Below are positions 8,602 to 56,613 of a DNA stretch of 60,472 nucleotides, in pieces; within the stretch, counting starts at the first letter, position 1; each line of letters starts with the position of its first letter. Both the position numbers and the translations under genes were made by a program. The notes under the pieces were generated by a model that was not told the origin of the DNA, did no database searches, and saw only the letters and a list, made by a program, of their open reading frames with translations. Origin of the DNA: a virus (Duplodnaviria > Caudoviricetes); IMG/VR virus record IMGVR_UViG_3300026519_000014, positions 1-60,472 of that record. One strand, 5' to 3'.

Positions 8602-11600
8602 ATGGCGCTAACTGAAGAACAGGTTAATGCTGCTTTAAATGGAGAGGTTAAACCAGCTTCTGAAGCATCTACAGAACCAAAATTAACTGAGGAACAAGTT
8701 GAGGCAGCTATGAACTCTGCCAATATTTTATATGGTTGGGGACAAGGGGAACAAGTAAATCCTGATGATTTTGGTTTTAATTTAAAAACAGGAGATTTTG
8801 ATAATTTTTTATACAGGGCTCAAGACCAGGGCTGGGGAGTTCAGTTAGGAAATGCTGCTGCCAGAATAGTACCTAATGCTGCTTTAGAAATAATAGGGGG
8901 AGTGGGTTCTATATTTGATTTTGAAGACTACTTAAATCAAGATAATGAGGTAGGAAATTCTTTAGTAAGAGCTTCTAATGAAGGAAAAGAAGCAATAAAT
9001 GAAGCTTTTCCTATTTACAGGGAAAGGCCGGGAACTTCTTTAGATATAGGAGATTCTGCATGGTGGTTTGAAAATGGTTCTGGAATAGTTTCTTCTGCTG
9101 CTGCTTTTGTAGGAATGGGTATGGGAACTGGAGCAGTTCTTTCTAAAGGAGCTCAAGCTTTACAATGGGTGGCAAAAGCTGGTGGAATGGTAAGAACTGC
9201 TGTTAGAATACGTAAAGCTTCTAAACTTATTATTCCTGGGCTTAATACTTTAGCTTTAAATCAAGCTGAAGGAATGCTTACTGCAACTGAAATATATGAT
9301 GAAACTTTAAAAAGGGGAATAAAACAAGGACTATCTCAAGATGAAGCTAAAAGAATTGCTGCAGCATCAGCTTCTCATTCCATTAATGTAAATAGAGCTA
9401 ATATTCTACTTAATGCTACTTCTGTAGCCGCTATTACTAAAGGAGTGAATAAAGGGGTTACCAGACAAATTCTTAAAAAAGAAGCTATGGGAAGAGCCGT
9501 AGCTTTAGAATCTGCCCAAGAATATGCTGAAGAAGTAATAAATCTATATGCTGAAAAGGAAGGTAAAAGAAAAGCTGATTTTGATTTATTAGGAAAATAC
9601 TATGAAACTAAACCTACTACTTGGGCAGAAAGGTTGTCAAATACTGTGTTTTCTATAGAAGGATTAGAAGCTGGTATTTTAGGGGCTGTAGGAGGGGCTG
9701 CTCAAACTGGGTTTACTCATGCAGGAAGGAATATAGCTATTAATGGAAAAAGTAAAAATGCAGAACTTAATGAAAGAATACAACAACAACAAAGCTTTAT
9801 TTCTAATTTAGATGGGGTATTAAAATCTCAGGGCACTAAAAATTTTACTACTAATTCTGCAGGTTTGGACGAACTTAGAAAAAGTGTAGAAGAAAGAAAC
9901 AATCTTTTAGCTTTAGCTGAAGAATATACCAAAAAGGGAGAAGAAGTGCCTTCCAAACTTGCCACTAAGATATTAATATCTGGAGATGCCATCTTAACAG
10001 ATCAAGCTCTAGCTAATTTTCAACAAGGGACTACTGAGTATTTAGAAAGCTGGTATAAAGATGTGCAAAAAGCTACTGTAGAAGAAGCTGTTGCTATGGG
10101 ATATACTGGAGAACAACTTAATGAAAATTCTCCTGTACATTATTCTAAAATGGCAGAAAGAGCATTGACCAAAATAAAAGAATTTGAAAAAATTTATCAG
10201 CAACATTATGCTTATAAAGGACTAGGCTCTATTATGGCTAATAGAATAGCTGCTAAAGCCACTATTGAAAGTATTAAAGAAGCTAATATAGAATTAGACA
10301 AGTTAAAAACAGAAGCAGAAGAATTTAATAAAACACTACCTTTATATGGCAATGAATTTAGGGTTTTAGTAGAAGATTTTGATAGGGTTTCTAAAACAGG
10401 AACACCTAAAGCAAAAAGATATATTACTCAAGCTAAAAAGAAAAGGGGATTACAACCTTATTTAAAAGCTGTTGAAAGACAAAAAAACATTATTAAAGAA
10501 TTAAAAAACCTGGAAAAGGAGTACAAAAAACTTATCTCTGATGAATATCAAAATAAATTAAAAAAGATAGAAGAAGAAATAGAAAAAAAGGAGATAGAGA
10601 AACAGGAAAAAGCTGTTGTAAAAGCTAAAGAAGATAAAGACTTAGCTGAAATTCAGGATGATACTGAAGACCAAGCAGAAGCTGTTAATGTTCCTGAAGC
10701 TTCTGTAAATACCCCTATAGAAGAGACAAGTCCAGAAGTTGAAGGCCATAGAGGATATGTAGGGCCTATAGTAGAAATATCTGAAGAGGAAGCAGAAAAA
10801 CAAGCCATCTTAGAAGAAATAATTGGTGAGGTAAAAAGAAGCTATGAAGAAGAAATAAAAAAAGAAGTTGGAATATCTGAAACTGAACAAAGAGAGGAAA
10901 TAGCTGAAGAAAATGCTAAGTATATTGAAGATATTCAAGAAAGTAGAGATATAGCTGAAGGTAAAAGTTTTGATGTAAAAGACCAAACTACGATTAAAAA
11001 TAATATAGTAGCTATAGATGAAAAACTATCCAGTCAAAATAAAACAGATAATAAGGCTTCTTCTGTAGCTTATTTGGCAGAAACTATCTTATCAAAAGAA
11101 AATACAGAAATAGACCCTATAGTATTTAATTATAATGAAGTTAATGTAGGAACTCCTGTTACTTTAAGAGTAGATACCTCTTATACTGGTAATGTTTATT
11201 ATAAAGGAAACGAAGTTCCCTGGCAAGGTTTAAAGTCCAGTTTAACTGAACAAGAACTTTTGGAAAAAACACCTATTGTTATTATGGTAGGAGATAAAAC
11301 AATAGGGTATGTGCATGATACTGAGTGGTTTACTTTATATAATATAGGAAAAGGGGCCCTTGAAAAATCAGAAACAGAGCCTTCTTTAAAAGAAAAAAAG
11401 ATTGCTGAAGAAAAACTTGCTGAAGAAAAGGAAAGAAATAGAGCTATCAGAAAATCTGTTTTGGAAAAAGGCTCTATAAATACTACAATTTCTTATAGAG
11501 GAAATGGTATTATACCTACTATAGAACAGGGAACTAAGCCAGTGTCTGAAGCTTTGCCTGGAATTAAGATAGCAGTTATAAAGAAAAATACGTTATCTGA

Positions 11601-14600
11601 TTATGAAGACTTAAATATTTTAAATAGAGAAACAATAACTAATGGAGAAAGGGTAAAAGATGGATATACTGTAGCTATTGTTCCAGTTAATAAAAATGAA
11701 GTGGGAGAAGAGCAATATATAGCTTATCCGCTATTAAGACAAAAATTAAATACAAAAGCTAAGTCTTCAATAGTAAAGGCTACTACCATTTTAATGAAAT
11801 CTTTATATTATCCAAAAGCCATTAGTTCAGAAGAAACAAAAATAGCAGATACTATAAAAGAGTTAATTGATGTAGATATAAGAACTATAGAAGGATTTGA
11901 AAAATATTTAACTTTATTTACTCATAATACTTATCCAGAAGGTAGTGGTAACCTTTCTCAATTTATGCTTACGCAAAATGAGAATAAATACGCTATCAAT
12001 GTTACTAGTAAAGGATCAGCAGGAGTATCTTTTGGTAAAGGAGGAAAACAAATTACTAAGACTACTAAGAATGTAATTATCCCTCAAATGTTCAAATCTA
12101 ATCCTGATACTTATATAGAAGGGTTGGAAAATATAGTAGAACACTTGTATGCAAATATTAATGATGCTTTATTAGATGCTGATGTTACAATTCCTGTTAT
12201 CACAGAAGAAAATAAAGTAGAGACTTTGTTTTCAGGAAAGTATACTGAATATGTTAAAACTTACGGCTTACATACCAATGCTACTTATCATGAAATAGGC
12301 ACTGAAGAAAATCCCAAGAGAGTTTATACTATTCAGAGTGTTATTTCTTATGACGATAGTTTTTCTGGTTTTATACCTAAATCCAATCAAAATGAAACAG
12401 TAGCTGCTACTGAAAAACCTGACATAGATAAAGAAACAGTTTTAAAAGAACCTTTTGAACCTTCTGAAAAAGTAAAAAAAGCTCCTCCAGGATTGGAGTT
12501 TATGGATGATTTTGACTTCACTCATTTAGAAGATAAAAATAAAGACATAGAAAGTGAGGAATTGTTTGCACCTTATACCGGAAAAACAGTTTCTGATTAT
12601 ATTATAGAGGGCATTCCAGCACACACACAAAATTTGCTTATAGATAATATTATCTTTAATGTACTCAATACTGTTGAAAACGATGATTTAGTTTTATCTA
12701 GAGTACAAGAAGCTTTAAGTTATTTAACTGAAGTTAAGTTTCCTATGATTAAATCAGAATCTTGGAAACTTAAAGAACTGGTAAGACTTAGATTGCAAAA
12801 TTTAACTAATACTGTTATTCAAAATGAAGAAGAATCTTTAGATTCTACTGAAAATAAGGATGAGGCAAGATCAGTAGAAGAAAAAGATCAAGCTTGGGGA
12901 ATAGATATTTTGACCATTAATCCTAAAGACAGTTTAAGCAGTAGATTAAAACAATTATTTTCTTTTATCCCTTTAGTTAATAAAGAAGATGGAACACCTT
13001 TAAGAACTAAAGAAGGTCTTATTGTTTTTGCTGGGTTTGATAAAACTTATGAAATAGTAATGTCAGAACTTTCTACTAATTTTGATAAGGATACTCCTGC
13101 CCCAAGAACTTTTGATTCTATGATGGATACTCTATTGGCTGCTAAAGATATTTATACTTTTTTGCCTTTTGTTGTAGATAGGCTTAAAAAAGCTCCCAGA
13201 CAACTTAAAAATGAATTTATGGTAAATGCTGATAAGCATTATACTGTTATGCACCATGTATGGAAAAAACAAACCTCAGATGGAAAATTTTATTATAACG
13301 TTTTAAATGATAATGCTAACTCCAGAACTCTTATTATAGAACAAACTTGGAGAAATAATAATTTACAGGTATCTAGGATTTCTAATAATCTTTTAGCTAA
13401 TGGAGAAGTAGTGGAAGAACTTAAAGCCGAATTTGATAAATGGATAACTAAAGATAAACAAATTGAAGATAAGAAGGTACTTAAATGGCTTTCTGATATG
13501 GGTATAACCATTAATCAAAAAACTTTAGATTCCTTTAAAGAAGAAGATATATATGGCTTATCCTATGTAAAACATTTTACTACAAAGGAAGGAATATTTA
13601 AAAATATAAGAGAGGCTCTTAATTCTATAAAAGACGGTAATGAGTTGTTAGAAACTACTTTATATAGAATGAGTGCTTTTAGTAGATTGGCAGCACAAGA
13701 GGGTTTAAACAATAGTATGTATATCCCTGATTCTTTCAGGTCAGGAGATAGTAATATTTATGGTTATCAGGAACAAAAGTGGGCTGTTAAAAGAACTTCA
13801 GATTTAAAATACGATGAAGAAGAGCTAACAAGATTGGCTAAAAATCCTATAACTAAAAACATATCTTGGCTAAAAAAATTAGGAAAACTAGACCCTTCTA
13901 CAGGTAAATTTGTTATAGATAAAGAAAGTAGGTTTTATAAAAATTTTTCTTTTGGTTATGTAGGATTAGCAGCTTTACAGGAAGAAGGTAAATTCTATGC
14001 AAATAAGAAAAAACTTTCTGAGCTGAGTTCTTCTGCTCATGAAGAAGTAAAAAAAGGTTTTTTTGAAAATAGGGCATTAGCTGATAAGTTTGGAAATAGA
14101 GTTGTTAGATTCTTTTTTCCTACTATGTCTGATAAGTCTACAATGTTTACTCTTAAAGTAGAACCTATCAAAATAGCTTATGATATTAATGGAAAATTAA
14201 CTAAAGAAACTATTGATGCTTTATATGATACTATTCTGATTCCTGAAATTAATAGAATGGTAAATCATATAGAAGGAGAAACCAATATAAAAAACTATGA
14301 CCAGGGAGCTATGATGTTTTATAGTGTTCCTGAATTAAATAATATTCCAGAAATATGGAATGGCACAGGAAGTACAAGAAGATTAAATTTAAAAGTAGGA
14401 AGAAAAGGAATAGAAGGAGATACTGTTAAAAAAATTATCAGGGAAAACTTTGAGAAACACTTAAACAACTTAGTGGAAGAACAGTTAAAAGACTGGGAGA
14501 GTTTAGGTTTATATAATGCTGATACTCATGTTTTTAGAGCAGGTTCTGAATATAAAGAATATTTAGATGGTTTAGTTTATGGAGAAATTGGCAGTTCTGA

Positions 14601-17600
14601 AAGAGAGTTTAATAAAGCAAAATTAGCAGCAGCAGATTTTGCTTTAAACTATATGGCAGCCAATGCTAATTTTCAAGTACTTTATGCAGGAGATGCAGCA
14701 CAATATTATGTTGGGGAACCTACATTCAAAGAAAATATAAAAACTGAAGAAGGGGAGTTTAAAAAAGGAGATAAAATACCTGTAAATCATTCATTATATT
14801 ATACTACTATAGCTAAAAATACTTTTATTAATATAGGTAAAAGACTAACTCTTTTAGCAGGGCCTAGAAGAAGTCCTGTATTTATTGAAGGAAAAACCAC
14901 ATATAGACAAGGTTTTGTAGAAGATAAAAGAACTGCTTCTTTAGCAATAGATTATATAAGTTCTATTTATGAAGACAATCCTGAATTTATAGAAAAATAT
15001 AAAAATATAGTAGGTACCGATGCTGTAGAACTTATAACAGTATCTGAAAAAATAGAAATTCTTTATAGAGATGGAAAATTAGACAATACAGATTATAAAA
15101 GACTATTAGAAATTGCTAAAAAAGGAGGAGATTTTTCTTCTTCTGATTTAGGTAAACTTAAAGTATTTCAAGCTGATAAGCCATTATATGCAGGCAAAGC
15201 AGTAGAGCCTAATTCTTTAGTTGAAAGAAGAATATATATTAAATCTGCTGCTATTACTTTAATCCCACAATTTACCAGAGGACTTGAAATAGATAAATTA
15301 AGAGTTCTTATGGAAAATAAGAAAAATCCTGTAAATAGAATAGCTTTTTCTTCTGCTGTTAAAGTAGGAAATGTTAAAAACCCTTTAAATATATGGAATG
15401 AAGATGGCAGTATTAAGGAAAATCTAAGTTTTTCTGAAGATCAGATACTGACCTTAAATAGAAATGAGCATGGCATACAACAAGACATTCCTTATAAAGA
15501 AAAGGATAGTATAAAAAGAGTAGTTCAAGCTTCTAAATTGTCTTTTGTTAATCTGTTGAATAGAGATATTTTGGTAGATAGTAAAAAAATTAAAGGCAGA
15601 GAACTATATGAAAGATTTCAAAAAAATTGGGAATCCTTATATTCTTTAGCAAAAGAGGAGTTTTTTGAAGAATTAGAAGTAGATGTTTCTAAAGATGTTT
15701 GGATACCAAACAGTAAAAAATTAAGTCGCTATATTAAAAGAGAAGCTGAGCTTAGAAACCTTTCTTTACAAGATTTAGAAGGTTTAGAACTTAGAGAAGA
15801 TGGTACTTTTGAATTACCTTTATGGGCTAATGGAGCTAATAAACAGTTTGAAGCTCTTTTAAATTCACTTATTACTAATAAAATACTAGAACAATCTATT
15901 CCAGGCAAAGCTTATGTTTTAGCTTCTGAGGAAGGTTTTCAAAAACAGGTAAAAACTATAGAAGATGTACTAGAAGAACAAAACATTAAAGACATAGAAT
16001 CTTCTGGAATTGTATTTACTGAATTTTGGAATGGTAAAAGTTTAATGCCTTCTATAGAAGGTAGTAATAATCAAGTATTTATACCTTGGCCTTTTAAAGA
16101 TGTTCCTATGGAACATTATATAAAGGATGGTAAAATAGACATGAGTAGAATAGATGCTGATTTATTTACTATGTATGGTATGAGGATACCAAATCAAGGG
16201 CCTAATTCTACAGGAAATTTGGAAATAGCTGGATTTCTACCTGAAGTTATGGGCGATATTATTATAGCTCCCAGAGATTTTGTAACTCAAATGGGGAGTG
16301 ATTTTGATGTGGACAAACTTTATACTTACAGATATAATTATATAGTTACAGATAATGGAGACATACGAAGAATTAAAGAAGAATATTTAAATCCTGAAAA
16401 ATTAAAACTAAGATTAAGTAAAGCAGAAAAACGGCTAAATGAAATTATTCTGTTAGATTTAAAAAAAGACAGACAAAGAGAAAAAAATTTACTTTATATT
16501 CAAATAGAAAAGCTAAACAAATTGCTTGAACCTAATGCTTTAGCCAAATTAAAATTTCAGGATGATATAGTAAAAATACATAGGTTATTAAATGCAGACC
16601 CCTCTAATTTTGTACAAAGACAGATAAAAGCCCCTTTAGGAGAAGGCAGGTTAAAGGAATATTCAGATATTATAGAAAATTCAAAAGATTCTTCTTTTTT
16701 TAGTCCCTATTCTTCTATTTATCAAAGAAATAAATTTAAAAATGCTTCTTCTGGAAATAAAGCTATTGGTGTTTTTGCTATAGCAAATACTTTTAATGCT
16801 TCTGCACAAACTGTTGAAGGCCCTTTAAAAATAGTAGATGGTGATAAAGATTTATATGTAAGATTTGGAAATCAAGTTAGTTATGGAGTGTTAAATAATG
16901 AATTAGCATTAGATAATAAAACATATATTTCTGAGAATATTTCTAATTACCTTTCTGTTGCTGTAGACAATGAAAAAATACAAGCTCTTCATAATTTGAA
17001 CATTAATGATGTTACTTATGGTATAGTAAATTTATTAACCCAACTAGGATTTACTCATGATGTTATTAGTAGTTTTTTAGGTCAGGATATACTTTTTGAA
17101 TTGGTAAAAAAAGTAGAGGAATTTCAAGATAAAGGAGAATCTTCAATTTCTGCTTTAAACAAGGCTTTTAGTGTGCTAGAAAAAGATTCCAAATACTCTG
17201 AAAAAGTTTTTGATGCTTTAGATGAAGATAATAAAAATAAAATATTAAAAAAATATGCAGACAGTAGTAGCGCATTTTTATTTGAAGTTATAAAAAAAGG
17301 AGAAGACCATCCTGACTATAAAATCACCCAAAAAGCTATATTGAAAAAATTTAAATTTCTTAGTAAAAAAGCTGTTTCTTTACAAAATTTACAAAGAATA
17401 ACTAATATAGATTCTTCAGGGATAGGAAAAAACCTAATAGAGAGTAAAGTAAAAGAGGAAGCTTTTGTAGAAGCACTTACAGATAAAAATATTATAGGAG
17501 CTTCTAAGCTATTTGGAGAAATTTCTTATACACCTTTAAAAGGATACCAACAATTTGGAAATATTTACTTTAAGCCTACTTCTATTTCTGGATTTGCAGT

Positions 17601-20600
17601 TATCTATGGAGTTATTCCTAATAATAGGCTATGGAATCAATCCAGATATTTTCCTTATACAGATAAAGCAATTAATGATGTAGTAAAAACTATTATTGAT
17701 ATAAGCAATATTAGAGAATTTGATGAATATCAAAATGTTTCTATAGAAAGTAGAATATTTAATGCTATAAAAAGTTATTATTTTAGTAATCTTGGTGAAT
17801 TAGGGTTTGTAGATACTTCACTACAAAAAGACACCGGTAGATTAGTAAGATATAATTTACTTTCTGAAGAAGGTGTTCTTCAAAATATAATTGCAAAATA
17901 TAGTAATACTTCTTTGTTTATAAATAATCCTTTTTTAAATAAGCTTTCTATTAGAAAAAGGAAAGCTGGAACTCCAGGAAGTATTAATTTTTCTTCAAGA
18001 GATACAGATGTTGTAAGTAAACATAATATTTATGGAGGATTAATAAAACTGCTAAATTCTACTAAAGAACTTCCTGAGCAGATACAGATTAATAATGATA
18101 AAGTTAAACTTATCACTGAACAAGATTTAGCTAGAGCTTTAATAGTTTCTCAATATGCTACAGGAGGTATACAAAAATACACACAATTTTTAAGATATAT
18201 CCCATTAGATTATTTGAAAAAAATAGGATTTACAGAATCTGCTAGAAACTTAGACTTTGCAAAACTTCTTAATGAAGGTAGAGGTAATAATAAATTTCAA
18301 CTTCCCTATATGGTTATTCAATTTTTTCAGCATAATCCCTATTTACTTAATACCCCAGAAGTAAGTATAAGAGAATTTGTAACTAAAGATGCTGAAAAGG
18401 AAGAAGATATAACTAGATTTTCTGTTCCACTACCTTTAAATAAAGCAAAAATAGAAGACCCCACTCTATTAGACCCTATGGTTAAGTTAAAAGGAGAAAA
18501 TAAAGACCATGTTTTTCTTTTTGATGGGAATGAATATATAAGACTAGATAATCTGGGAAGTGTAGATTTTAATGAATATCAAAGTAAAGAAATAACCAGA
18601 AGTGTTATTTATAACAATATAGCAAAAGATAAAAAAGGGGTACCGGTATCTTATTATGATCAAGTAGCAGCTAATACCCCTAAAAAACCTATCATTAATA
18701 AGGCTGATCAACTAAACCACATCACATTAGACCAAAAATATGGTTTTAATGAGGCTGAGCCAACTATCTCTAAAACCTTAATGGCTATATCCAATAATGG
18801 CCCTACTGCTCACAGAGCTCTTGCAGAAGATTATTTGCAAGTGTTTAAAGACGGAGAATACAAATTAGTAATAGATAGAAACTTACCTGCTAAAGGAAGA
18901 CACATAAGAAGTGAAAAAACTGTATTTATTAATCCTGATTTACTAACAGGGGATGAGGATTATAGCAAAACTTTTTTACATGAGGTTACACATATGCTTA
19001 CAGTAGAAGTACTAGAAAATCCTGTTACAGAACAACAAAAGAAAGCCAAAGCAAGTTTAACAAGATTATTAAATGCTTACAGAAAAACTCTCAAATCAGG
19101 AGAACTGGAGTTAGTAAAGAAACAAGTTTCAGAAGCTAAAGAAAAAGGCGTTTCTCCTAAACTAACTGAAGAACAACTTGTAAGAGTATATCCTGCTATT
19201 AATTTAAAAGAATTTGTAGCTGGTTTTATGACTGATGTCAAAGTTCAAAATCATTTAAATAAAGTAGATTTTAATGAAAATACTACTTATGGACAAGAAT
19301 ATGAAAAAAGACTGTTAAAGATTTTAAATTCTATAAAAGGTTTTGAATTAACTTCTACTTCTGCTCAAGCTATAAGAGAAGTAATTGCTTTAATAGATTA
19401 TCAAGATGAAGTTAAATTAAATCCAGTAGTTTTAGCTAAAATGGAAAATTCTACTTCTAATAGTGTAGATGCAAACTCCAGAGTTAGAAAAAAATCTATT
19501 AAACATACTGAAGAAGATGTAGGCATAAAAAGTTCTATAGCACAGGCAGAGGCTAATTTCTTAGAAGACAATTATGAAAATATGATAACTTCTGCTATAA
19601 ATAAAGCTGTGGATAGAATGGCTCCTATTGATGAAAATAATATTCCGCCAGAACCCACTACTTTTGAAGATTTACCAGCAGCCACTAAAAAAGAAAAAGA
19701 CGAAGAAGCACCAATATCAGATTTAGTCCATCCTTCTATTAAAAATAAACAGGCTATTTTAAAAGCTTTAAATAAAAAAGTTAATAGGGACAAAAAAAGG
19801 ATGCATGATTCTACTGATCCTAAAGTAGGAGTTTATTATGAGAATAGAATAATAAGAACTAAAGAAAAAATAGCTGAAATAGAAGAACAAATTGCTGCTA
19901 TTACAGGAATGAATACTTATTCCACTACTTTAAAGATAGCTGAAGAAGATTTATCTTATGTAGATACTTTAGTTAGTAGTGATATAAGGCTTATTACTTC
20001 AGAAGATATGGAAATAGTGGATAGTATTATTACACTATGGAAAAATTTTAAAAAAGAAGAATTTGTTGAAAAAATTTATAGTTCTTTAGACACTGAAAAA
20101 GATTTTAACAATATAAAAAATAAAGCCGAATCTTTAGAGGATAAGTTACATGATATAGCTATAGAAAAGACCAAATCTTTTATTAAAAGAGAGTTGCCTA
20201 AAGCTACTTCTGAAGATATTAAAAATCTAATGGCTATATCTGATGATATAGGAGTAGCTTCTTCTTATATATATGACCTTTCGAGGGTAGATAATGTAAT
20301 AGCTCAAGCTATGTCCAAATCTATTTTAAGAACTAATGACTATATAACTGAAGAAGTTACTAAAGTAGCAGAAGAAATAGACCCTATTTTACAAAATGCT
20401 GAAAAAGCGTTAAAAAAGCTGGGTCTTACTTTTGATGTTTTTATGCAAAAAGATGAAAAAGATAGATATACTGGTAGAATAATAATGCCATACTCCCAGA
20501 AATTTTTTAATTTGCTTAAAGCTAATTCTGAAAAAGCCTTTAGCCCAGAGGCTAGTAAAGAAGATAGACAAGCATATAGAGAATGGAGAAAACTTACTCA

Positions 20601-23001
20601 AATAACAATAAATCCTTCTAAATTGGAAGATAAAAAATATGTTGAAACTCTAATTAAAGAGGTAGGAAATGAAAATATAGAATATATTAAAAAACAAGCT
20701 ATTAGAAGGCAGGAATACTATAATAAAGCTTTAGAAAGAGAGCAAATAAGAATAGATACTAATCCTGACTTATCTAAAGAAGAGAAGAAACAAGCTATTA
20801 AAAAATGGGCAGAAGAAAATAAATTTAAATATCAAATATCTATCCCAAGAAAAATAAATACCAGAGGAGAACCTACTGGGTTTTATGATAGCAAGTTTGA
20901 AATAATTCAAAATAACCCAGACTTAAAAGTATTTCATGAATATACAATAGATTTACTTTCTAAATTAGGTAAATATTCTACTAACAAAAGAACCCCTGTA
21001 AATAGTATTCCTTTAATGCAAAAGGAGTTTTGGGAGGCGGCTAAAGGGAAAGACAGTCAAGGTATTTTTAACCTTATGGCTGATGCCATGAAAAAAGGGT
21101 TGAGGGCTAAAGGTGCTTATGAAGATTATATTACAGAAATAACTTCTGGAAAAAGAACCCTTTCTAATAATTTTAATGAAGTTACTAAAAGACAGTTGGC
21201 TGATAGATTAGTAGTTAAAGAATTACAGTATAAGCAGAAAACAAATAAAAACCCTACTAAAACACAAATTAAAGAATGGAAAGCTGATATTATGGATGAG
21301 CTTACTAAAGAAAGCTCTTTAGACATTGGTAAAATATTAAAAACTTATGCTGCCACCGCTATTGCCTATAAGCATAAAAGTCAAGTAGAAACACCTTTAA
21401 GAATAGCTGAAAAATTATTAAAAGAAGTAAAAGCTGCTGAAAGAAGTTCTTCTGGAGCTATTATTAATGACTTGGTAAATAAAGGTATAGATGAACAAGG
21501 GCTTATCAATATTAATAACATGGTTACCAGTACTTTAAATCATTGGTTTGGTGTTAAAAAGCCTGAAAAAATAAACAAAAAAAGTAAAGTAAAATATACT
21601 TCCGAAGAGAAAAAAACCAAAATTAAATTAGATAAAATAATAGCTACAGCTAAGGAGAATATTGAAAAATTAAACAAAAGCTTAAAAAATGCTTCTATAA
21701 CAGAAGATAGATATATAAAAAAGATAGCTGTAGAACAAAATGCTATAGATACTGCTCAAAAACAATTAGATAAACTAGGAGGTGTGATTTCTAAAGAACG
21801 TATCTTTAAAGGTACCATGAGATATATGCAACTTTTAGGTATGGGTTGGAATGCTGTAGCTGGAATAGCTAATTTAGGTTTTGGGCTTATTTCAAATACT
21901 AATGAGGGAATAGGAGGAGAATACTATACTACAAAAGAATTTTTTAATGCTCTTGGGGATGTTATAAAAGGGACTTTATTTGGTATAAAAACTGAAGATG
22001 GTAAAAAACAATCTATTCTTATGAAAAGATGGGGAATCTTACAAAAATCTTCACAAGAAACTTTCAAAAGAAAAACAGCAACCAATAAGTTACTTAATTT
22101 TTTAAATCCTTATAAGATTCAAGATACTACTGAGTATCTTAATCAAGCTCCTATAATGGTATTAATGCAGAAAAAAACTCCTGTATTAGATTCTAAAGGA
22201 GAGCCTGTAGTAATAAATGGAACTAAAATAAATTTTTATAATGCTTATGATAAAGATGGAAATTGGAAAACAGGTATTTTAGGAGAAGAAAAAAACTATC
22301 AAAAACAGAAGGACGACCTTAGAATACTTATAGGAGATTTAATAGCCAGAAATCATGGTAATTATAATAATGAGGGCAGACATTTAATGGTGAAAGATAG
22401 TTTAATAGGGCAATCATTAACTCAATTTAGGACTTGGATGTTAGAGGGCATAGGAAACAGATTTAGAGAGGAGTATTTTGATAGAATTACAGGAACTATT
22501 AAAAAAGGTAGATATGTGACTATTTATGAAGATTGGGAGAGAGCAGCTAAATTATTATATAGTGCTAAAACATGGAAAGAGTTATCTATTGTAGATAGAG
22601 CTAATGTAAGAAAAACATTAGCAGATATAGGAATGCTATTATCTTTTATGGGGTTTGTTACTTTACTTAAAGGTGCAGCAGAAGATGAAGACGATGAAGA
22701 TAAATTAGCAGTATTGCATTTACTTATTAATATTGGTTTAAGGATGCAAACAGATATAGCTTTTTATGTTAATCCAATGGAAGCTGAAAGACTTACTCAA
22801 TCTACTATTCCTGTAGCATCTTTAGTTTCCAGAGCTTCAGGATTAACGCAAGCTATGTATAAATATATAATGGACGAAGATGAAATAACTAATGGAATAT
22901 ATGCAGGGGAAAGCAATTTATTACATAAAGGATTTAACTCTATACCATTTGGAAAAGCTATATTACAAGTTCATAAAACAGCAACAAGACCATTCAGATA
23001 A
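8602..23001 (+). CDS. Giant virion-packaged DNA-dependent RNA polymerase polyprotein with a zincin protease domain
   Basis: 4799 aa. RIPNQG...GSDFDVDKLY catalytic loop (DFDVDK at 16300-16317) as in crAss-like/phi14:2-type RNAPs; HEVTH...NLKEFVA zincin motif (18979-18993); Gly/Ala-rich hydrophobic N-terminal region. Confidence 0.9.
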   Translation: MALTEEQVNAALNGEVKPASEASTEPKLTEEQVEAAMNSANILYGWGQGEQVNPDDFGFNLKTGDFDNFLYRAQDQGWGVQLGNAAARIVPNAALEIIGGVGSIFDFEDYLNQDNEVGNSLVRASNEGKEAINEAFPIYRERPGTSLDIGDSAWWFENGSGIVSSAAAFVGMGMGTGAVLSKGAQALQWVAKAGGMVRTAVRIRKASKLIIPGLNTLALNQAEGMLTATEIYDETLKRGIKQGLSQDEAKRIAAASASHSINVNRANILLNATSVAAITKGVNKGVTRQILKKEAMGRAVALESAQEYAEEVINLYAEKEGKRKADFDLLGKYYETKPTTWAERLSNTVFSIEGLEAGILGAVGGAAQTGFTHAGRNIAINGKSKNAELNERIQQQQSFISNLDGVLKSQGTKNFTTNSAGLDELRKSVEERNNLLALAEEYTKKGEEVPSKLATKILISGDAILTDQALANFQQGTTEYLESWYKDVQKATVEEAVAMGYTGEQLNENSPVHYSKMAERALTKIKEFEKIYQQHYAYKGLGSIMANRIAAKATIESIKEANIELDKLKTEAEEFNKTLPLYGNEFRVLVEDFDRVSKTGTPKAKRYITQAKKKRGLQPYLKAVERQKNIIKELKNLEKEYKKLISDEYQNKLKKIEEEIEKKEIEKQEKAVVKAKEDKDLAEIQDDTEDQAEAVNVPEASVNTPIEETSPEVEGHRGYVGPIVEISEEEAEKQAILEEIIGEVKRSYEEEIKKEVGISETEQREEIAEENAKYIEDIQESRDIAEGKSFDVKDQTTIKNNIVAIDEKLSSQNKTDNKASSVAYLAETILSKENTEIDPIVFNYNEVNVGTPVTLRVDTSYTGNVYYKGNEVPWQGLKSSLTEQELLEKTPIVIMVGDKTIGYVHDTEWFTLYNIGKGALEKSETEPSLKEKKIAEEKLAEEKERNRAIRKSVLEKGSINTTISYRGNGIIPTIEQGTKPVSEALPGIKIAVIKKNTLSDYEDLNILNRETITNGERVKDGYTVAIVPVNKNEVGEEQYIAYPLLRQKLNTKAKSSIVKATTILMKSLYYPKAISSEETKIADTIKELIDVDIRTIEGFEKYLTLFTHNTYPEGSGNLSQFMLTQNENKYAINVTSKGSAGVSFGKGGKQITKTTKNVIIPQMFKSNPDTYIEGLENIVEHLYANINDALLDADVTIPVITEENKVETLFSGKYTEYVKTYGLHTNATYHEIGTEENPKRVYTIQSVISYDDSFSGFIPKSNQNETVAATEKPDIDKETVLKEPFEPSEKVKKAPPGLEFMDDFDFTHLEDKNKDIESEELFAPYTGKTVSDYIIEGIPAHTQNLLIDNIIFNVLNTVENDDLVLSRVQEALSYLTEVKFPMIKSESWKLKELVRLRLQNLTNTVIQNEEESLDSTENKDEARSVEEKDQAWGIDILTINPKDSLSSRLKQLFSFIPLVNKEDGTPLRTKEGLIVFAGFDKTYEIVMSELSTNFDKDTPAPRTFDSMMDTLLAAKDIYTFLPFVVDRLKKAPRQLKNEFMVNADKHYTVMHHVWKKQTSDGKFYYNVLNDNANSRTLIIEQTWRNNNLQVSRISNNLLANGEVVEELKAEFDKWITKDKQIEDKKVLKWLSDMGITINQKTLDSFKEEDIYGLSYVKHFTTKEGIFKNIREALNSIKDGNELLETTLYRMSAFSRLAAQEGLNNSMYIPDSFRSGDSNIYGYQEQKWAVKRTSDLKYDEEELTRLAKNPITKNISWLKKLGKLDPSTGKFVIDKESRFYKNFSFGYVGLAALQEEGKFYANKKKLSELSSSAHEEVKKGFFENRALADKFGNRVVRFFFPTMSDKSTMFTLKVEPIKIAYDINGKLTKETIDALYDTILIPEINRMVNHIEGETNIKNYDQGAMMFYSVPELNNIPEIWNGTGSTRRLNLKVGRKGIEGDTVKKIIRENFEKHLNNLVEEQLKDWESLGLYNADTHVFRAGSEYKEYLDGLVYGEIGSSEREFNKAKLAAADFALNYMAANANFQVLYAGDAAQYYVGEPTFKENIKTEEGEFKKGDKIPVNHSLYYTTIAKNTFINIGKRLTLLAGPRRSPVFIEGKTTYRQGFVEDKRTASLAIDYISSIYEDNPEFIEKYKNIVGTDAVELITVSEKIEILYRDGKLDNTDYKRLLEIAKKGGDFSSSDLGKLKVFQADKPLYAGKAVEPNSLVERRIYIKSAAITLIPQFTRGLEIDKLRVLMENKKNPVNRIAFSSAVKVGNVKNPLNIWNEDGSIKENLSFSEDQILTLNRNEHGIQQDIPYKEKDSIKRVVQASKLSFVNLLNRDILVDSKKIKGRELYERFQKNWESLYSLAKEEFFEELEVDVSKDVWIPNSKKLSRYIKREAELRNLSLQDLEGLELREDGTFELPLWANGANKQFEALLNSLITNKILEQSIPGKAYVLASEEGFQKQVKTIEDVLEEQNIKDIESSGIVFTEFWNGKSLMPSIEGSNNQVFIPWPFKDVPMEHYIKDGKIDMSRIDADLFTMYGMRIPNQGPNSTGNLEIAGFLPEVMGDIIIAPRDFVTQMGSDFDVDKLYTYRYNYIVTDNGDIRRIKEEYLNPEKLKLRLSKAEKRLNEIILLDLKKDRQREKNLLYIQIEKLNKLLEPNALAKLKFQDDIVKIHRLLNADPSNFVQRQIKAPLGEGRLKEYSDIIENSKDSSFFSPYSSIYQRNKFKNASSGNKAIGVFAIANTFNASAQTVEGPLKIVDGDKDLYVRFGNQVSYGVLNNELALDNKTYISENISNYLSVAVDNEKIQALHNLNINDVTYGIVNLLTQLGFTHDVISSFLGQDILFELVKKVEEFQDKGESSISALNKAFSVLEKDSKYSEKVFDALDEDNKNKILKKYADSSSAFLFEVIKKGEDHPDYKITQKAILKKFKFLSKKAVSLQNLQRITNIDSSGIGKNLIESKVKEEAFVEALTDKNIIGASKLFGEISYTPLKGYQQFGNIYFKPTSISGFAVIYGVIPNNRLWNQSRYFPYTDKAINDVVKTIIDISNIREFDEYQNVSIESRIFNAIKSYYFSNLGELGFVDTSLQKDTGRLVRYNLLSEEGVLQNIIAKYSNTSLFINNPFLNKLSIRKRKAGTPGSINFSSRDTDVVSKHNIYGGLIKLLNSTKELPEQIQINNDKVKLITEQDLARALIVSQYATGGIQKYTQFLRYIPLDYLKKIGFTESARNLDFAKLLNEGRGNNKFQLPYMVIQFFQHNPYLLNTPEVSIREFVTKDAEKEEDITRFSVPLPLNKAKIEDPTLLDPMVKLKGENKDHVFLFDGNEYIRLDNLGSVDFNEYQSKEITRSVIYNNIAKDKKGVPVSYYDQVAANTPKKPIINKADQLNHITLDQKYGFNEAEPTISKTLMAISNNGPTAHRALAEDYLQVFKDGEYKLVIDRNLPAKGRHIRSEKTVFINPDLLTGDEDYSKTFLHEVTHMLTVEVLENPVTEQQKKAKASLTRLLNAYRKTLKSGELELVKKQVSEAKEKGVSPKLTEEQLVRVYPAINLKEFVAGFMTDVKVQNHLNKVDFNENTTYGQEYEKRLLKILNSIKGFELTSTSAQAIREVIALIDYQDEVKLNPVVLAKMENSTSNSVDANSRVRKKSIKHTEEDVGIKSSIAQAEANFLEDNYENMITSAINKAVDRMAPIDENNIPPEPTTFEDLPAATKKEKDEEAPISDLVHPSIKNKQAILKALNKKVNRDKKRMHDSTDPKVGVYYENRIIRTKEKIAEIEEQIAAITGMNTYSTTLKIAEEDLSYVDTLVSSDIRLITSEDMEIVDSIITLWKNFKKEEFVEKIYSSLDTEKDFNNIKNKAESLEDKLHDIAIEKTKSFIKRELPKATSEDIKNLMAISDDIGVASSYIYDLSRVDNVIAQAMSKSILRTNDYITEEVTKVAEEIDPILQNAEKALKKLGLTFDVFMQKDEKDRYTGRIIMPYSQKFFNLLKANSEKAFSPEASKEDRQAYREWRKLTQITINPSKLEDKKYVETLIKEVGNENIEYIKKQAIRRQEYYNKALEREQIRIDTNPDLSKEEKKQAIKKWAEENKFKYQISIPRKINTRGEPTGFYDSKFEIIQNNPDLKVFHEYTIDLLSKLGKYSTNKRTPVNSIPLMQKEFWEAAKGKDSQGIFNLMADAMKKGLRAKGAYEDYITEITSGKRTLSNNFNEVTKRQLADRLVVKELQYKQKTNKNPTKTQIKEWKADIMDELTKESSLDIGKILKTYAATAIAYKHKSQVETPLRIAEKLLKEVKAAERSSSGAIINDLVNKGIDEQGLININNMVTSTLNHWFGVKKPEKINKKSKVKYTSEEKKTKIKLDKIIATAKENIEKLNKSLKNASITEDRYIKKIAVEQNAIDTAQKQLDKLGGVISKERIFKGTMRYMQLLGMGWNAVAGIANLGFGLISNTNEGIGGEYYTTKEFFNALGDVIKGTLFGIKTEDGKKQSILMKRWGILQKSSQETFKRKTATNKLLNFLNPYKIQDTTEYLNQAPIMVLMQKKTPVLDSKGEPVVINGTKINFYNAYDKDGNWKTGILGEEKNYQKQKDDLRILIGDLIARNHGNYNNEGRHLMVKDSLIGQSLTQFRTWMLEGIGNRFREEYFDRITGTIKKGRYVTIYEDWERAAKLLYSAKTWKELSIVDRANVRKTLADIGMLLSFMGFVTLLKGAAEDEDDEDKLAVLHLLINIGLRMQTDIAFYVNPMEAERLTQSTIPVASLVSRASGLTQAMYKYIMDEDEITNGIYAGESNLLHKGFNSIPFGKAILQVHKTATRPFR

Positions 23002-24640: not shown

Positions 24641-24675
24641 AATTTATATAGTTAAATTTGTTTTTTGTTTACTTT

Positions 24676-24721
24676 CCTAATAACAGCAACTTTTGTTGCG
24701 CTTGACCCCTGTTAGCAACCA
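24676..24721 (-). repeat. Short attC-like site
   Basis: Minus strand TGGTTGCTAAC-AG...GCAAC-aaaa-GTTGC-T-GTTATTAGG. Confidence 0.55.
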
Positions 24722-24723
24722 TA

Positions 24724-24957
24724 CTACAATAGTTGGTTGCATTTAGCGGATGGGTCTTTACTCCCTCCTCCATATTTACATTCATCACAATCAATCTTAG
24801 TGTTATATTCACAATCATATTCTATGCCCCATCCTATGTCTGGTATTTCATATCCTTTGCATTTTGGGTGTCTTGTGTCAGTACGGTTGCTAACAATAGA
24901 TATACCCAAATTGGCAAATCTTTTGTTGACTGAAACATTTTCCTTTTTATTACACAT
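24724..24957 (-). CDS. Cys-rich small protein whose N-terminus is encoded inside an attC-like hairpin
   Basis: MCNKK...LGISIV|SNRTD...CDECKYGG...C; the GTT of the core is the Val codon. Confidence 0.7.
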   Translation of the reverse strand: MCNKKENVSVNKRFANLGISIVSNRTDTRHPKCKGYEIPDIGWGIEYDCEYNTKIDCDECKYGGGSKDPSAKCNQLL

Positions 24958-25026
24958 TGTTTTAAATTTTTAATTACTATTATTTTAATTGCCAATCAGT
25001 GTGTATATCCCAATCCGTTGGTTGCT
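24885..25026 (-). repeat. attC-like site (~142 bp) with a start codon in its loop
   Basis: Arms pair: gatatac 24899-24905 with gtatatc 25003-25009, attggcaa 24910-24917 with ttgccaat 24989-24996; cores AGCAACCAAC and GTTAGCAACC. Confidence 0.7.
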
Positions 25027-25084
25027 ATTTAATTTAAAAAAAGCTCATCCAACTGTTCAGCCATAGCTTCTGCTGGCCACTGAT

Positions 25085-25506
25085 GCCCAACACCGTATAC
25101 AATTAAAAAATTGGAGTTAGTCATTTTTAGAAGTTTTAGTTGGGTCAACCATGAAATAATAAATGTTTTTTGTTTCTTTATCATACCTTCTTTTAATTTC
25201 TTCATGCCATTTTTTAATAAGATACATGGCAACCTTTAATTTGTAGAAACCACAATTCCTTTTATTTAAAGGATAATTAATGCTTGGATTGAATTTTTCG
25301 TAATTTCCAACTTCCGTACATATTCCTATCCATGACCTTTTACCAAGAATACCAATCTTTGACAATGACATTTGGGGATAGTAAACTTTATCTCCATTAT
25401 TTTTCTCTTCTACTTTAATTCTAAATTTTGGGTCTGTGAATGTTCTCATTTTTTATATTTTTAGTTAACTAATTTTCTAATTATATACTTTTTTCGTTAC
25501 CCACCA
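25085..25506 (-). repeat. attC-like site whose arms enclose a whole gene
   Basis: gtatacaattaaaaaattggagtta (25095-25119) is the near-complement of taactaattttctaattatatac (25466-25488); cores GTGGGTAAC and GTTGGGC. Confidence 0.65.
25117..25449 (-). CDS. Hypothetical protein lying between the arms of an attC-like site
   Basis: 110-aa ORF with an A-rich leader. Confidence 0.7.
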   Translation of the reverse strand: MRTFTDPKFRIKVEEKNNGDKVYYPQMSLSKIGILGKRSWIGICTEVGNYEKFNPSINYPLNKRNCGFYKLKVAMYLIKKWHEEIKRRYDKETKNIYYFMVDPTKTSKND

Positions 25507-25722
25507 TTAAGGCAGTTCGGTAATTATATAGTTTATAGCCATATTTATATCAGTTTCAATCTGAAATTTAAAGCCTTTGAAATCATACACTTTTTTATCC
25601 TTTACTCTTTCAAGGCTGTATTTTTGCAATAGTTCATAAATCTCTGGGAGTGTAAGATTATCCACGTTTGCTTCTATATTTAAGTTTATTGTCATCATAG
25701 TTTCTATTTTGCCTGCGCTCAT
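25507..25722 (-). CDS. Small hypothetical protein
   Basis: 71-aa ORF; the stop is followed directly by a TGGTGGGTAAC core. Confidence 0.6.
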   Translation of the reverse strand: MSAGKIETMMTINLNIEANVDNLTLPEIYELLQKYSLERVKDKKVYDFKGFKFQIETDINMAINYIITELP

Positions 25723-25840
25723 GTGCTTTTAATCTATTTTCTCGTTTGATATCAGCCATCCATTGCAGCACTTGAATAATTCCAATGGTTTCATATCCTT
25801 GTTTCTGCAACTCTTTTAATCTTTTTTCAAGTTCTTTCAT
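25658..25840 (-). CDS. Small hypothetical protein
   Basis: 60-aa ORF overlapping the next gene. Confidence 0.5.
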   Translation of the reverse strand: MKELEKRLKELQKQGYETIGIIQVLQWMADIKRENRLKAHERRQNRNYDDNKLKYRSKRG

Positions 25841-25865
25841 TTTTTTCAGTTACCCATAATAAAAA

Positions 25866-26123
25866 TTACTTACGTGTGTATGTGTCAATACCACCCTCAT
25901 AGTTTTCATAACCTAAAGCCATTGCAATACAAAACATTTTAGTTCTTGCGTTACATTGTTCCATATAGTCAAGAGCTTCATATAGTATTTCAATCTTCTT
26001 AGCTTGTGTTAATTCACTAAATTGTTTTGCTATAAAAGCTTGTGTGTACTTCTTTTTAACTTCTGTTTTCATAATCCGTAATTTTAAAATATGCCTAACA
26101 ATAAATATAGCAGAGTGGGGCAT
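25866..26123 (-). CDS. Small hypothetical protein (cassette gene; true start may be MKTE)
   Basis: The frame crosses the GTTAGGCAT core; an ATGGGTAAC core follows the stop. Confidence 0.65.
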   Translation of the reverse strand: MPHSAIFIVRHILKLRIMKTEVKKKYTQAFIAKQFSELTQAKKIEILYEALDYMEQCNARTKMFCIAMALGYENYEGGIDTYTRK

Positions 26124-26225
26124 CGTCCCAAATCGCCATATAGTACCTTTTATTTAATTTAGTGCAAGATTGAAAGTTGGTACTGCTATCTTCCCACCTT
26201 GCCATATTTTTGTAACGTTATATTT
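26091..26225 (-). repeat. Best-preserved attC-like site (~135 bp)
   Basis: Minus strand AAATATAAC...AAATATGGCAAGGTGGG...AGTACC...GGTACT...CCCACTCTGCTATATTT..GTTAGGCAT; GTTAGGC fits the GTTRRRY consensus. Confidence 0.75.
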
Positions 26226-26340
26226 AAGTTTGCTTAAATAAGGAACATTTTTTTAAACATACTGAATCCGTCAACCATGAATCACAACTTTTCCATGCGC
26301 CAGTATCCTTGCAAACATCCGCTCGTGCCTCGCTAAACAT
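26224..26340 (-). CDS. 38-aa four-cysteine peptide (mini cassette), below the ORF-track cutoff
   Basis: MFSEARADVCKDTGAWKSCDSWLTDSVCLKKCSLFKQT, bracketed by GTTATGTTTA and TAAATATAAC. Confidence 0.55.
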   Translation of the reverse strand: MFSEARADVCKDTGAWKSCDSWLTDSVCLKKCSLFKQT

Positions 26341-26359
26341 AACAACTGCTATGTCAGTA

Positions 26360-26848
26360 TTATTTTTTCTCTATATCTGACACAATTTCACACTCGGAAG
26401 ATGGAACAAAAAACATATTTTGTCCTTCCGAAACTGTAATACCTAACTTCATATCCTCAAAATCAACACCAAGCAATATAAAATCTACAGATTCAGCGTA
26501 GTATCCGTTACTTTCTCCATACCATCTAATATCTACATATCCTTTAATTGTTGCGAATTTATAATAAGTCCAAGTACAAGACCCCCGAAGATTCCCTTGC
26601 TTTGTTAGTTCAATGTCTTCTTTAGAAGATGGCTCATAATTAGAAACTTCTTCTGCTTTTAGTATTGGGCCCCCAACCAAATCTTGTAAGTCACCAACTA
26701 TATCTTGGATCGAGACACTTTCGCAACAATCTTGCCTGTGATACATTTTATATTACTTTCCATCTTCGCAAGTGAATATTATCTCGTCATTATCTATTTT
26801 TTCTACTTTTGTAAGTGTTTTGCCAATCAATTCTTTTAATCTTGTCAT
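26360..26848 (-). pseudogene. Phage protein (YHxQDCCESV type) interrupted by an in-frame TAA
   Basis: [44 protein letters not shown]...; the stop is at 26753-26755, in frame with the 128-aa ORF. Confidence 0.7.
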
Positions 26849-51495: not shown

Positions 51496-51813
51496 TTAAG
51501 CAGTTCTAACTAACATTCCAAATTTATAGCCTATAGCTTCAATTTCAGAGGCAGTTAGAATTTTGCCCTCTTCTGGTCTCCCATTAAGCTTGAAAACTAA
51601 GGCAATATCCCCCACTTTTTGGGAATATTGTGCCCTATTCATAGGGATATTAACCCCTAATAGAGTTTTCAGAATATCGCAAGTGGACTGATGGCCCACG
51701 TAGCTTTCTACGCCCCTCTTGACCATTTCCCTGGCATCCTCCAGGGAAACTTCAGTGTATCTATACTCCCCGAAGGAAGTTAAGATACTAGTATTTAAAA
51801 CTGCTGTCTTCAT
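51496..51813 (-). CDS. acrIII-1: AcrIII-1 family (DUF1874/YddF/STIV B116-like) cyclic-oligoadenylate ring nuclease
   Basis: LNTSILT..G.Y, SYVGHQST (catalytic GH), PMNR, LNGRPEEGKIL, GYKFGML; 105 aa. Confidence 0.85.
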   Translation of the reverse strand: MKTAVLNTSILTSFGEYRYTEVSLEDAREMVKRGVESYVGHQSTCDILKTLLGVNIPMNRAQYSQKVGDIALVFKLNGRPEEGKILTASEIEAIGYKFGMLVRTA

Positions 51814-51903
51814 TTTTTTATTATTTAAGGTTTAATTGCCTACTCTATTAAATAGAGCTATCCTAAGTGAAATAAAGGAAGGAAAGGGGTTTCCCCCTTA
51901 CCA

Positions 51904-52128
51904 CTACATTATTACTGTAGTTCCTATTTTGAGCCTCTCTAGGCCCACTCCAGTGAGGCACTCAATGCCCTCTTTGATGAACTTATTACCATCCCATCCT
52001 CCTTCGAGGATGACAACAACATACTCACCAATTTTTTCAGAAGTGAAAACTTCGGGGTTTTCTCCCCTGGTTCTGCTTCCCTTTTCTCCTACCAGGAAAG
52101 CAGAAATTTTTCTTTCAATGTTATTCAT
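51904..52128 (-). CDS. First gene of the early unit, hypothetical
   Basis: 74-aa ORF with an A-rich leader. Confidence 0.6.
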   Translation of the reverse strand: MNNIERKISAFLVGEKGSRTRGENPEVFTSEKIGEYVVVILEGGWDGNKFIKEGIECLTGVGLERLKIGTTVIM

Positions 52129-52149
52129 AGTTTTACTTGTTTATAGGTA

Positions 52150-52284
52150 GGGGGATATCCCCCACCAACCAGGATTAAGTGGGGGTTTTTATGGGGGTAC
52201 CCCCTCATTTAGAACACTTTTATAATTTCTCAAATTTTTAACAAAATTTTTTTCTGTTCTCTACTATTTAGAACACTTTTATAA
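52150..52284. promoter_or_regulatory. G/C palindromes and a 19-bp direct repeat upstream of the early region
   Basis: GGGGGATATCCCCC 52150-52163; GGGGGTACCCCC 52193-52204; ATTTAGAACACTTTTATAA at 52207-52225 and 52266-52284. Confidence 0.6.
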
Positions 52285-56414: not shown

Positions 56415-56613
56415 GAAATAGTAAAACATATAATAATGAAAAACCCTCTTTCCAAAGGAAGGGCTATTATTATAGAAGCCCTATTGGAGAGGTTAGCTCT
56501 TGAAAAGCTAATCTCTGCTACAGAGCTTAAAAGATTACAAGTCTTGAAAGCACTGGAAGTAGAGGAGTTGTTTAAATTTTAAAAAAGTTTTCTGACACAA
56601 AACACAAGAAAAA

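Follow-up and report, generated by a model that had tools for sequence, protein, structure and literature searches.

Several described systems share features with the locus considered here, which lies at 24.7-26.4 kb of IMG/VR record IMGVR_UViG_3300026519_000014, a virus of the Caudoviricetes. The stretch analysed is the complete record, 60,472 nucleotides (nt) long and rated 63% complete; it is called the window below. Virulent phages are reported to carry clusters of attC sites without an integrase, or CALINs (Qi et al. 2023, PMC9892861). The attI1 site of class 1 integrons contains a short open reading frame (ORF) that spans the crossover point and terminates in the TAG of the core. Both attI1, with its ORF-11 and ORF-18, and the short ORFs of attC sites place a translation start within the site and carry a short ORF across the core (PMC8876359). 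The PeSLs of T4-type phages are described as a promoter and a stem-loop upstream of ORFans, mediating modular shuffling and mini-circles (Arbiol et al. 2010, PMC2839356).

The region of interest is a run of small minus-strand ORFs directly after a giant gene. The explanation regarded as probable, with considerable room for doubt, is that it holds small mobile gene modules which are started from a hairpin and exchanged at their boxes, either in an attC-like manner or through short homology. The best preserved of them, module A, is described first.

Hairpin, core and bracketed cargo

A sequence-only reading of this DNA had singled out four GTT triplets, each taken as an in-frame Val codon at the junction between a hairpin and a downstream coding segment (the cargo). 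Direct reading of the sequence confirmed all four on the minus strand: site 1 at 24892-24894 (LGISI-V-SNR, Val22 of a protein of 77 amino acids, aa), site 2 at 25089-25091 (LIVYG-V-GHQ), site 3 at 26097-26099 (SAIFI-V-RH) and site 4 at 26341-26343 (TDIAV-V-MFS). At site 1 the Val lies inside a conserved protein; at sites 2-4 there is no demonstrable fusion.

Module A surrounds site 1 and, like its gene, is read on the minus strand. Its upstream limit is an AAC box (AAC|GG in gene sense, 25017..25019), where homology to L024, a metagenome contig of 1055 nt, begins. The 5' arm of the hairpin follows (24989..25011) and pairs with the 3' arm (24899..24917) in the single-stranded DNA fold; fold and alignment agree on the 3' arm, which also provides codons 14-20 (FANLGIS). 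The loop contains an A-rich leader with an ATTAAA... motif (24958..24988), conserved in L024 and in two further contigs, L044 and L045, and this leader may serve as a promoter or a translation-initiation signal. The 77-aa ORF (24724..24957) joins a hairpin-encoded N-terminus to a Cys-rich cargo of family 1. It has 42 homologues, the conserved core of which begins RHPKCKG; a single-protein search of viral contigs with the ORF gave no locus. That its ATG (24957) and first 21 codons lie between complementary arms was borne out, and the hairpin at site 1 would thus donate leader, ATG and N-terminus; of the four window sites, this is the only demonstrable fusion. Junction 1 is formed by the core arm GTTAGCAACC (24885..24894), read as Val22-Ser23-Asn24..., which makes a perfect inverted repeat of 10-11 nt with the 3' arm GGTTGCTAAC (24711..24720). 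The latter lies 4 nt past the stop codon and is the downstream limit of the module, as homology to L024 ends exactly there.

The hairpin is conserved as a structure. In an alignment of four sequences, pairing holds in 92% of the cells proposed to pair, vs 13-44% when the partners are slid, and three pairs have changed on both sides. A search with the exact 24-nt hairpin arm returned just two contigs that were already known. The cargos, in turn, are under coding selection, with 12/16, 14/20, 12/17 (window vs L024) and 24/35 of their differences at third codon positions. Translation probably begins at the ATG within the hairpin.

On either side of the cargo stand inverted arms of 10 nt, in the form GTTAGCxxxx...xxxxGCTAAC, and their inner four nucleotides covary between lineages. 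Arms of 10-11 nt are perfect in the window and L024 (inner bases AACC/GGTT), in L005 (GGTA/TACC) and in L007 (AATA/TATT), and an unrelated 67-aa cargo of L024 has perfect arms with inner AGTA/TACT; those of L004 have one mismatch. Among all loci collected in the comparison (1734 ORFs), 39 bracket repeats were counted vs 21.3 +/- 4.6, with a maximum of 32, in 50 cross-ORF controls. GTTAGC/GCTAAC occurs five times in the 1055 nt of L024, where 0.3 would be expected. The two ends of the proteins also go together: among family-1 proteins, 12 have both a VSGS-type junction and an ending of Y, C or D followed by R, 27 have neither, and three are mixed.

Hairpin and arms might act in the transcript only, governing its translation or stability and taking no part in recombination. 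In line with this, non-Watson-Crick positions in near-perfect arms are G.T on the gene-sense strand in four cases and A.C in none, and the L004/L005 stem has two further G.T pairs (by eye). Sense-strand G.T is, however, equally expected when that DNA strand folds, and a role confined to mRNA leaves unexplained both the exact ends of homology blocks at the boxes and the reshuffling of modules and cargos described in the next section. This account is very unlikely.

Inverted arms also raise the question of an intragenic inversion switch, in which an invertase would flip the cargo at the 10-nt arms and leave the protein off or with a new C-terminus. The arms are identical and 167-184 nt apart, and their spacing and length resemble fimS-type switches. 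Yet the flipped form yields short, unconserved tails in four of five loci, being open in L005 only, and no invertase family was seen in the window. One sequencing run, X1, the likely source of the window, was compared with the region in the form of contigs, in which circles or rare forms are invisible; its contigs contain no strand-changing joint at the arms, rare flipped forms escaping detection there. Such a switch is the least probable of the explanations considered.

Combinations of N-termini and cargos, and the limits of modules

In-frame combinations of N-terminus and cargo at the core are, to judge from the homologues, real in this module class. The largest sample is that of cargo X (ORF 130-348 of L025, a contig filed as a Treponemataceae metagenome-assembled genome, MAG). 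Its body of ~50 aa is ~90% identical in 118 of the 120 homologues listed, and in these the N-termini range from 9 to 67 aa; a crude 50% criterion sorts them into ~66 clusters. The junction reads VSGS in 85 of the 118, and V is the first residue (V-x-x-x) in 111. Only three of the 120 listed have no VSGS-type extension. In family 2, to which the cargo at site 4 belongs, the Val is internal and invariant in all eight short homologues (72-106 aa; ten matches in all). The expectation that homologues of C-terminal halves would carry different N-termini meeting the cargo at the Val was thus upheld, in 8/8 cases for family 2 and 111/118 for cargo X.

The same N-termini are also found on different cargos. 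The module MKNxSTELAxNPPFCKTDVSGS stands before cargo X in L025 and in the homologue P0057, and before a family-1 cargo in P0042. The window hairpin and N-terminus (..ANLGISIVS) align with the hairpin that precedes cargo X in L044 and L045 (..PELGIxVVS). Among distant family-1 homologues, N-terminal types cross-cut cargo subtypes (by eye). The sequence-only reading had made its case depend on whether the N-terminus across the Val stays constant among homologues; among distant ones it does not, and among the closest (P0001, P0002, L024) it does.

A further observation concerns the junction peptide C/L-N/T-I/L-P-x-V, which precedes quite different cargos in L025 (784-1026), in the family-2 homologues P0051-P0056, and in P0096, P0121, P0154 and P0168. 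This points to a further hairpin/core type that is common alongside VSGS.

Fusions at a fixed junction are familiar from other systems. In shufflons and phage invertible segments (R64 pilV, the Mu G segment), a constant N-terminus is joined in frame to alternative C-termini, and in polymorphic toxins C-termini are swapped at conserved junction motifs. The modules differ from shufflons in that variable and constant roles are many-to-many here, with no inverted alternative cargos and no invertase found.

Limits of exchange can be read from homology blocks. L024 matches the window over 25019-24711, and the flanks on either side are unrelated; the common block consists of leader, hairpin, complete ORF and the 10-nt arm past the stop. 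In three close pairs (window/L024, L004/L005 and L044/L045), the block runs from AAC|GG 5' of the hairpin to AAC| past the stop. As these blocks extend from AAC to AAC, the whole ORF moved as one unit. A three-way alignment of L004, L005 and L025 gives a mosaic (manual counts): hairpin and N-terminus of L005 and L025 are ~94% identical, loops included, and their cargos are only ~45-75% identical; the L005 cargo is closer to that of L004, and in L025 the box upstream is L004-like. Recombination must therefore have taken place in the past at the AAC box and also at the GTTAGC arm. L043 was too distant for placing the limits of a further module, C.

Modules of this kind appear to recur in many contigs from phages and in one from a MAG. 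In L024, three or more modules stand in a row, each closed by ...AAC with a G after it, and L025 has at least ten co-oriented small ORFs, several of them with brackets. A search with a back-translated LNILDVS pattern gave 15 new loci, none with a cargo family of this analysis; one encodes a helix-turn-helix-like protein. In run X1, a lower-depth variant contig is the same as the window over 24649-24722 and then diverges. The assembly graph of that run breaks at 24649/50.

Breaks at either edge of a box (the L024 block ends at the 3' arm, and the variant block of run X1 begins there), and at both box types, are also what PeSL-like regulatory cassettes would give. Hairpin, leader and arms would then be expression signals between small accessory genes, such as promoters, translation starts or terminator-like stems, and ordinary homologous recombination of phages would act at short shared sequences in place of a site-specific reaction. 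Many modules repeat an A-rich leader similar to TTAATTAA, placed ~15-25 nt ahead of the ATG (by eye), and a complete phage that carries a module has no tyrosine recombinase. As in the published PeSLs, a repeated stem-loop with expression signals stands before small ORFans in plastic regions, and recombination shuffles the modules. In that account, PeSLs occupy intergenic positions, rely on sigma-70 and stop short of the start codon, and encoded N-termini or covarying arms do not figure in the description; the hairpins here overlap coding sequence, and the gene content gives no sign of a T4-type phage. A scan of the region for sigma-70-type promoters gave 39 vs 36.1 expected, no excess. For arms whose four inner nucleotides covary, no regulatory role is obvious, and a folded site that is cut and rejoined would produce them naturally; the conserved triplets are AAC/GTT. 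Short-homology recombination of PeSL type would thus fit the breaks at either box edge and fail to explain the covarying arms. Regulatory cassettes of this sort are rather unlikely, although less so than a role in mRNA or an inversion switch.

Mechanism, integron likeness and the question of a recombinase

The preferred explanation, mobile modules with a coding hairpin, can be set out in gene sense. A module would open with the AAC box, followed by the hairpin with its A-rich leader and ATG in the loop and by the GTT core that opens the 10-nt arm. After the core would come the cargo coding segment, often without its own start, then the stop codon and the complementary arm ending in AAC. A start-less cargo, as at site 1, would be translated from the hairpin, the core being read through as Val-Ser. 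For a cargo with an ATG of its own, as at site 3, the hairpin ORF would stop at the core TAG and expression would proceed by coupling. Lineages have recombined at the AAC box as well as the GTT core, and hairpin-encoded N-termini and cargos are found in numerous in-frame combinations because a single frame is used at the core. As to the recombination chemistry and the enzyme, what we infer to be most likely at work is a site of the integron attC type, folded as a single strand, with the genes antisense to the usual polarity; short-homology recombination would be the alternative for exchange at the core.

The likeness to integron cassettes and CALINs, as the published descriptions present them, covers several features. 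Small co-oriented cassettes form arrays, candidate AAC...GTT imperfect palindromes span ~45-170 nt, and the first bases of a module are complementary to the inverse core past its gene, the 10-nt complementarity covarying. In all three pairs, GTT marks both ends of the shared block when the strand opposite to the genes is read, and the genomes are those of virulent phages without an integrase, IntI being absent from CALINs by definition. There are also differences: the block limits imply a polarity to which the genes run antisense, the hairpin already contains the ORF start, a start codon is absent from many cargos, L stems are as long as 16-18 bp, modules measure only 120-400 nt, and the core is GTTAGC and not strict GTTRRRY. 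In terms of the attC palindrome, R''(..AAC)-L''...L'-R'(GTT..) over ~57-141 nt, boxes and stems are present, and fold energies are mostly no better than those of shuffles. By this comparison, the AAC/GTT triplets, box complementarity, block limits and arrays would match integron cassettes if the genes are taken as antisense to the usual polarity.

Parallels to ORF-11 of attI1 lie in the stop codon, which there and at window site 3 is the TAG formed by positions 3-5 of GTTRRRY, and in the service of the short ORF to cassettes without translation signals of their own. An ORF-11-type layout can be read at site 3, where the ORF 26205-26095 ends in the core TAG and the real ATG lies at 26072. ORF-11 is described as acting by coupling, its peptide unfused, whereas here a frame with GTT as Val runs into the cargo and is common in homologues. 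Literature searches on phage attC sites and integrons, cassette fusions and PeSLs yielded no account of hairpin-embedded N-termini in phage cassettes; the supplementary tables of PMC9892861, in which the phage attC sites are listed, may include related ones.

Several observations weigh against mobile modules with a coding hairpin, beginning with the enzyme. The tyrosine recombinase family PF00589 has no match in the window, which is 63% complete, nor in four of five related records, one of them rated 100% complete. The sole match is a 271-aa Xer-like protein at 1204-2019 of L051 (the record of L026), with ~17 kb between it and the cassette. It scores highest with the archaeal XerA/integron-integrase model (181.5 bits; cut-off 220) and reaches 126.9 bits against TIGR02249 (cut-off 265), so that it falls below every curated cut-off. 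The earlier proposal that any recombination at G/TT gives an in-frame chimera is unproven, no recombinase having been found. In addition, the latest breaks in the three close pairs do not lie at the GTT core, hairpin and cargo having moved together, and the closest homologues keep their N-terminus across the Val.

The translation products raise doubts of their own. Changed N-terminal codons are non-synonymous in 4/5, 4/5, 3/6 and 1/1 cases in the respective comparisons; codons without constraint at the protein level make the N-termini look like passengers of the hairpin DNA. They would thus look like products of DNA that is obliged to stay open, not like selected protein parts. In cargo X, a TTG directly after VSGS is a candidate for the true start, and some cargo X fusions may therefore be extensions made by gene callers; the rarity of short forms (3/120 listed) argues against a TTG start as the rule.

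Folding and arms are uneven as well. Single-stranded DNA folds 5' of sites 1-4 have z = -1.3, +0.15, -1.0 and -2.1 against shuffles. Folds of single sequences give z = -1.4 for the window, +0.2 for L024, -0.8 for L004 and -0.5 for L007, L005 alone reaching -2.6. In a generic energy scan for AAC...GTT hairpins, the sites are not among the 30 best-folding candidates. Inverted repeats of nine in ten positions number ~446 among the matches listed, vs 449 under a Markov null, no excess, and 15 of 20 family-1 loci lack the arms. The cores match GTTRRRY only about half the time. The frame is in phase 0 in eight of the nine ORF-crossing brackets judged independent by the analyst, which speaks for the modules and exceeds the codon-bias background only marginally (p ~0.02-0.06). 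Rfam gave no match at E<=1.

These points also bear on an account by chance and codon bias, according to which ordinary small genes show coincidental cores and hairpins, and unconstrained tails diverge fast in homologues. Judged by this window alone, the pattern is weak. In 44 ordinary window genes, phase 0 is occupied by 321/657 GTT, 182/310 GTTR and 17/21 TTGTTA, and GTTAG in phase 1, which would create TAG, occurs in 0/41 cases; as GTT is in phase 0 in 49-59% of cases within ordinary genes, four of four sites in phase is roughly a one-in-ten event. GTTRRRY is abundant in the window (88 occurrences), and the shared 15-mer TATATYTATTGTTAG has two exact copies and, at <=3 mismatches, 25 matches vs 23.5 expected; no repeat family is conspicuous. 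Background phase, motif abundance, non-significant folds, chance-level repeats and the lack of demonstrable fusions at sites 2-4 all favour chance. Against it stand the arm covariation in four lineage/cargo combinations, the exact limits of shared blocks in three pairs, the incongruent similarity of hairpins and cargos, and a cargo X conserved at ~90% with ~66 unrelated N-terminal types. The account is contradicted for site 1 and may hold for site 2; taken as a whole, its likelihood is very small.

A stronger version of the preferred explanation is put forward tentatively, as possible and less probable than the general one: an attC-like site that doubles as a translation-start module, with site-specific AAC/GTT exchange that assembles in-frame proteins of N-terminus and cargo from start-less segments, in a widespread and undescribed class of micro-cassettes of phages and other mobile DNA; this would be a cassette system at the protein level without a resident integrase. 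If true, phages would have a compact route to capture and express very small genes without start signals. It would account for many 'hypothetical proteins' with a near-identical body and unrelated heads, and would extend integron-like biology to lytic phage genomes, with gene orientation reversed. The precise boxes, predicted circles and predicted N-termini would also provide a concrete handle on the reshuffling of plastic phage regions. For many such ORFs, the start chosen by gene callers is probably wrong or too far upstream.

Sites 2 to 4 and the surrounding genes

The other sites in the window are less complete. Site 2 belongs to a 31-aa ORF (25029..25124, minus), a possible mini-module known from sequence reading; PHROGs, the one search made with it, gave no match. 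Its junction, GTTGGGC (25085-25091), has a partner box, GTTGGGT, on the plus strand at 25139-25145, with an arm complementarity of only 5 bp.

At site 3, the core GTTAGGCATA (26090..26099, minus) pairs at 8 of 10 positions with TATGGGTAAC at 25849-25858 (by eye). Downstream of it, a 68-aa gene has its own ATG (25866..26072, minus), and the GTT lies 27 nt 5' of this real start. All four homologues, the gene call of the window included, are 68 aa long and begin at M18, that is, at 26072; therefore, the GTT is not translated as a Val of the 68-aa gene. A 36-aa hairpin ORF (26095..26205, minus; arms at 26193-26213 and 26100-26120) is in another frame than this gene and stops at the TAG at 26097-26095, inside the GTTAGG of the core. 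A 76-kb contig of run X1, from another entity of lower depth, has 26076-26126 in common with the window (51 nt, three differences), a piece that covers this core and one hairpin arm.

Site 4 carries a family-2 cargo (26224..26343, minus), comprising a 38-aa ORF (26224-26340) and the core GTTATGTTTA (26334-26343). The 3' arm TAAATATAAC (26217..26226, minus) overlaps the stop codon and forms nine Watson-Crick pairs and one G.T with the core. The GTT stands directly before the sole ATG of the ORF, and the frame is open for just 10 codons further 5' (by eye). Compared with its eight homologues, the window copy is N-terminally truncated, its N-terminal module missing. The family-2 alignment matched none of the viral loci or phage records.

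Immediately upstream, a homologue of phrog_2650 (26360-26848, minus), a family widespread in Bacillus and Pseudomonas phages (158 records), is interrupted by an in-frame TAA at 26755-26753. Of its two pieces, ORF 26848-26753 corresponds to profile positions 10-40 and ORF 26746-26360 to 44-134, and the TAA may reflect a nonsense mutation, read-through or an error in sequencing. A +1 frameshift fusing this gene to the 38-aa ORF was considered and is unsupported, since the conserved part of phrog_2650 ends earlier.

Apart from phrog_2650 and Lar-like and RusA-like families, a comparison of PHROGs with the small ORFs of the window gave no family, and a search of phage-record DNA with the region gave short matches to two cargos only. 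Over 25495-25699, 205 nt are 79% identical to LR756500.1, a 462-kb uncultured phage record; the match spans the small ORF 25507-25722 and little beyond, and is a further sign of single small genes passing between very different phages.

The window as a whole is AT-rich (G+C ~29%), and no transfer RNA gene was found in its 60,472 nt. Its plus strand carries structural genes, including the terminase and the giant gene (8602-23001, a single frame of 4799 aa), and its minus strand carries replication genes. The last 400 residues of the giant protein have no relative in the viral contig collection, as searched by exact-peptide seeding. Two intergenic stretches richer in G+C, 51590-52200 and 56438-56593, gave the strongest folds in the AAC...GTT scan, down to -45 kcal/mol over ~150 nt, and are candidates for structured RNAs or for regulatory regions close to where gene orientation changes.

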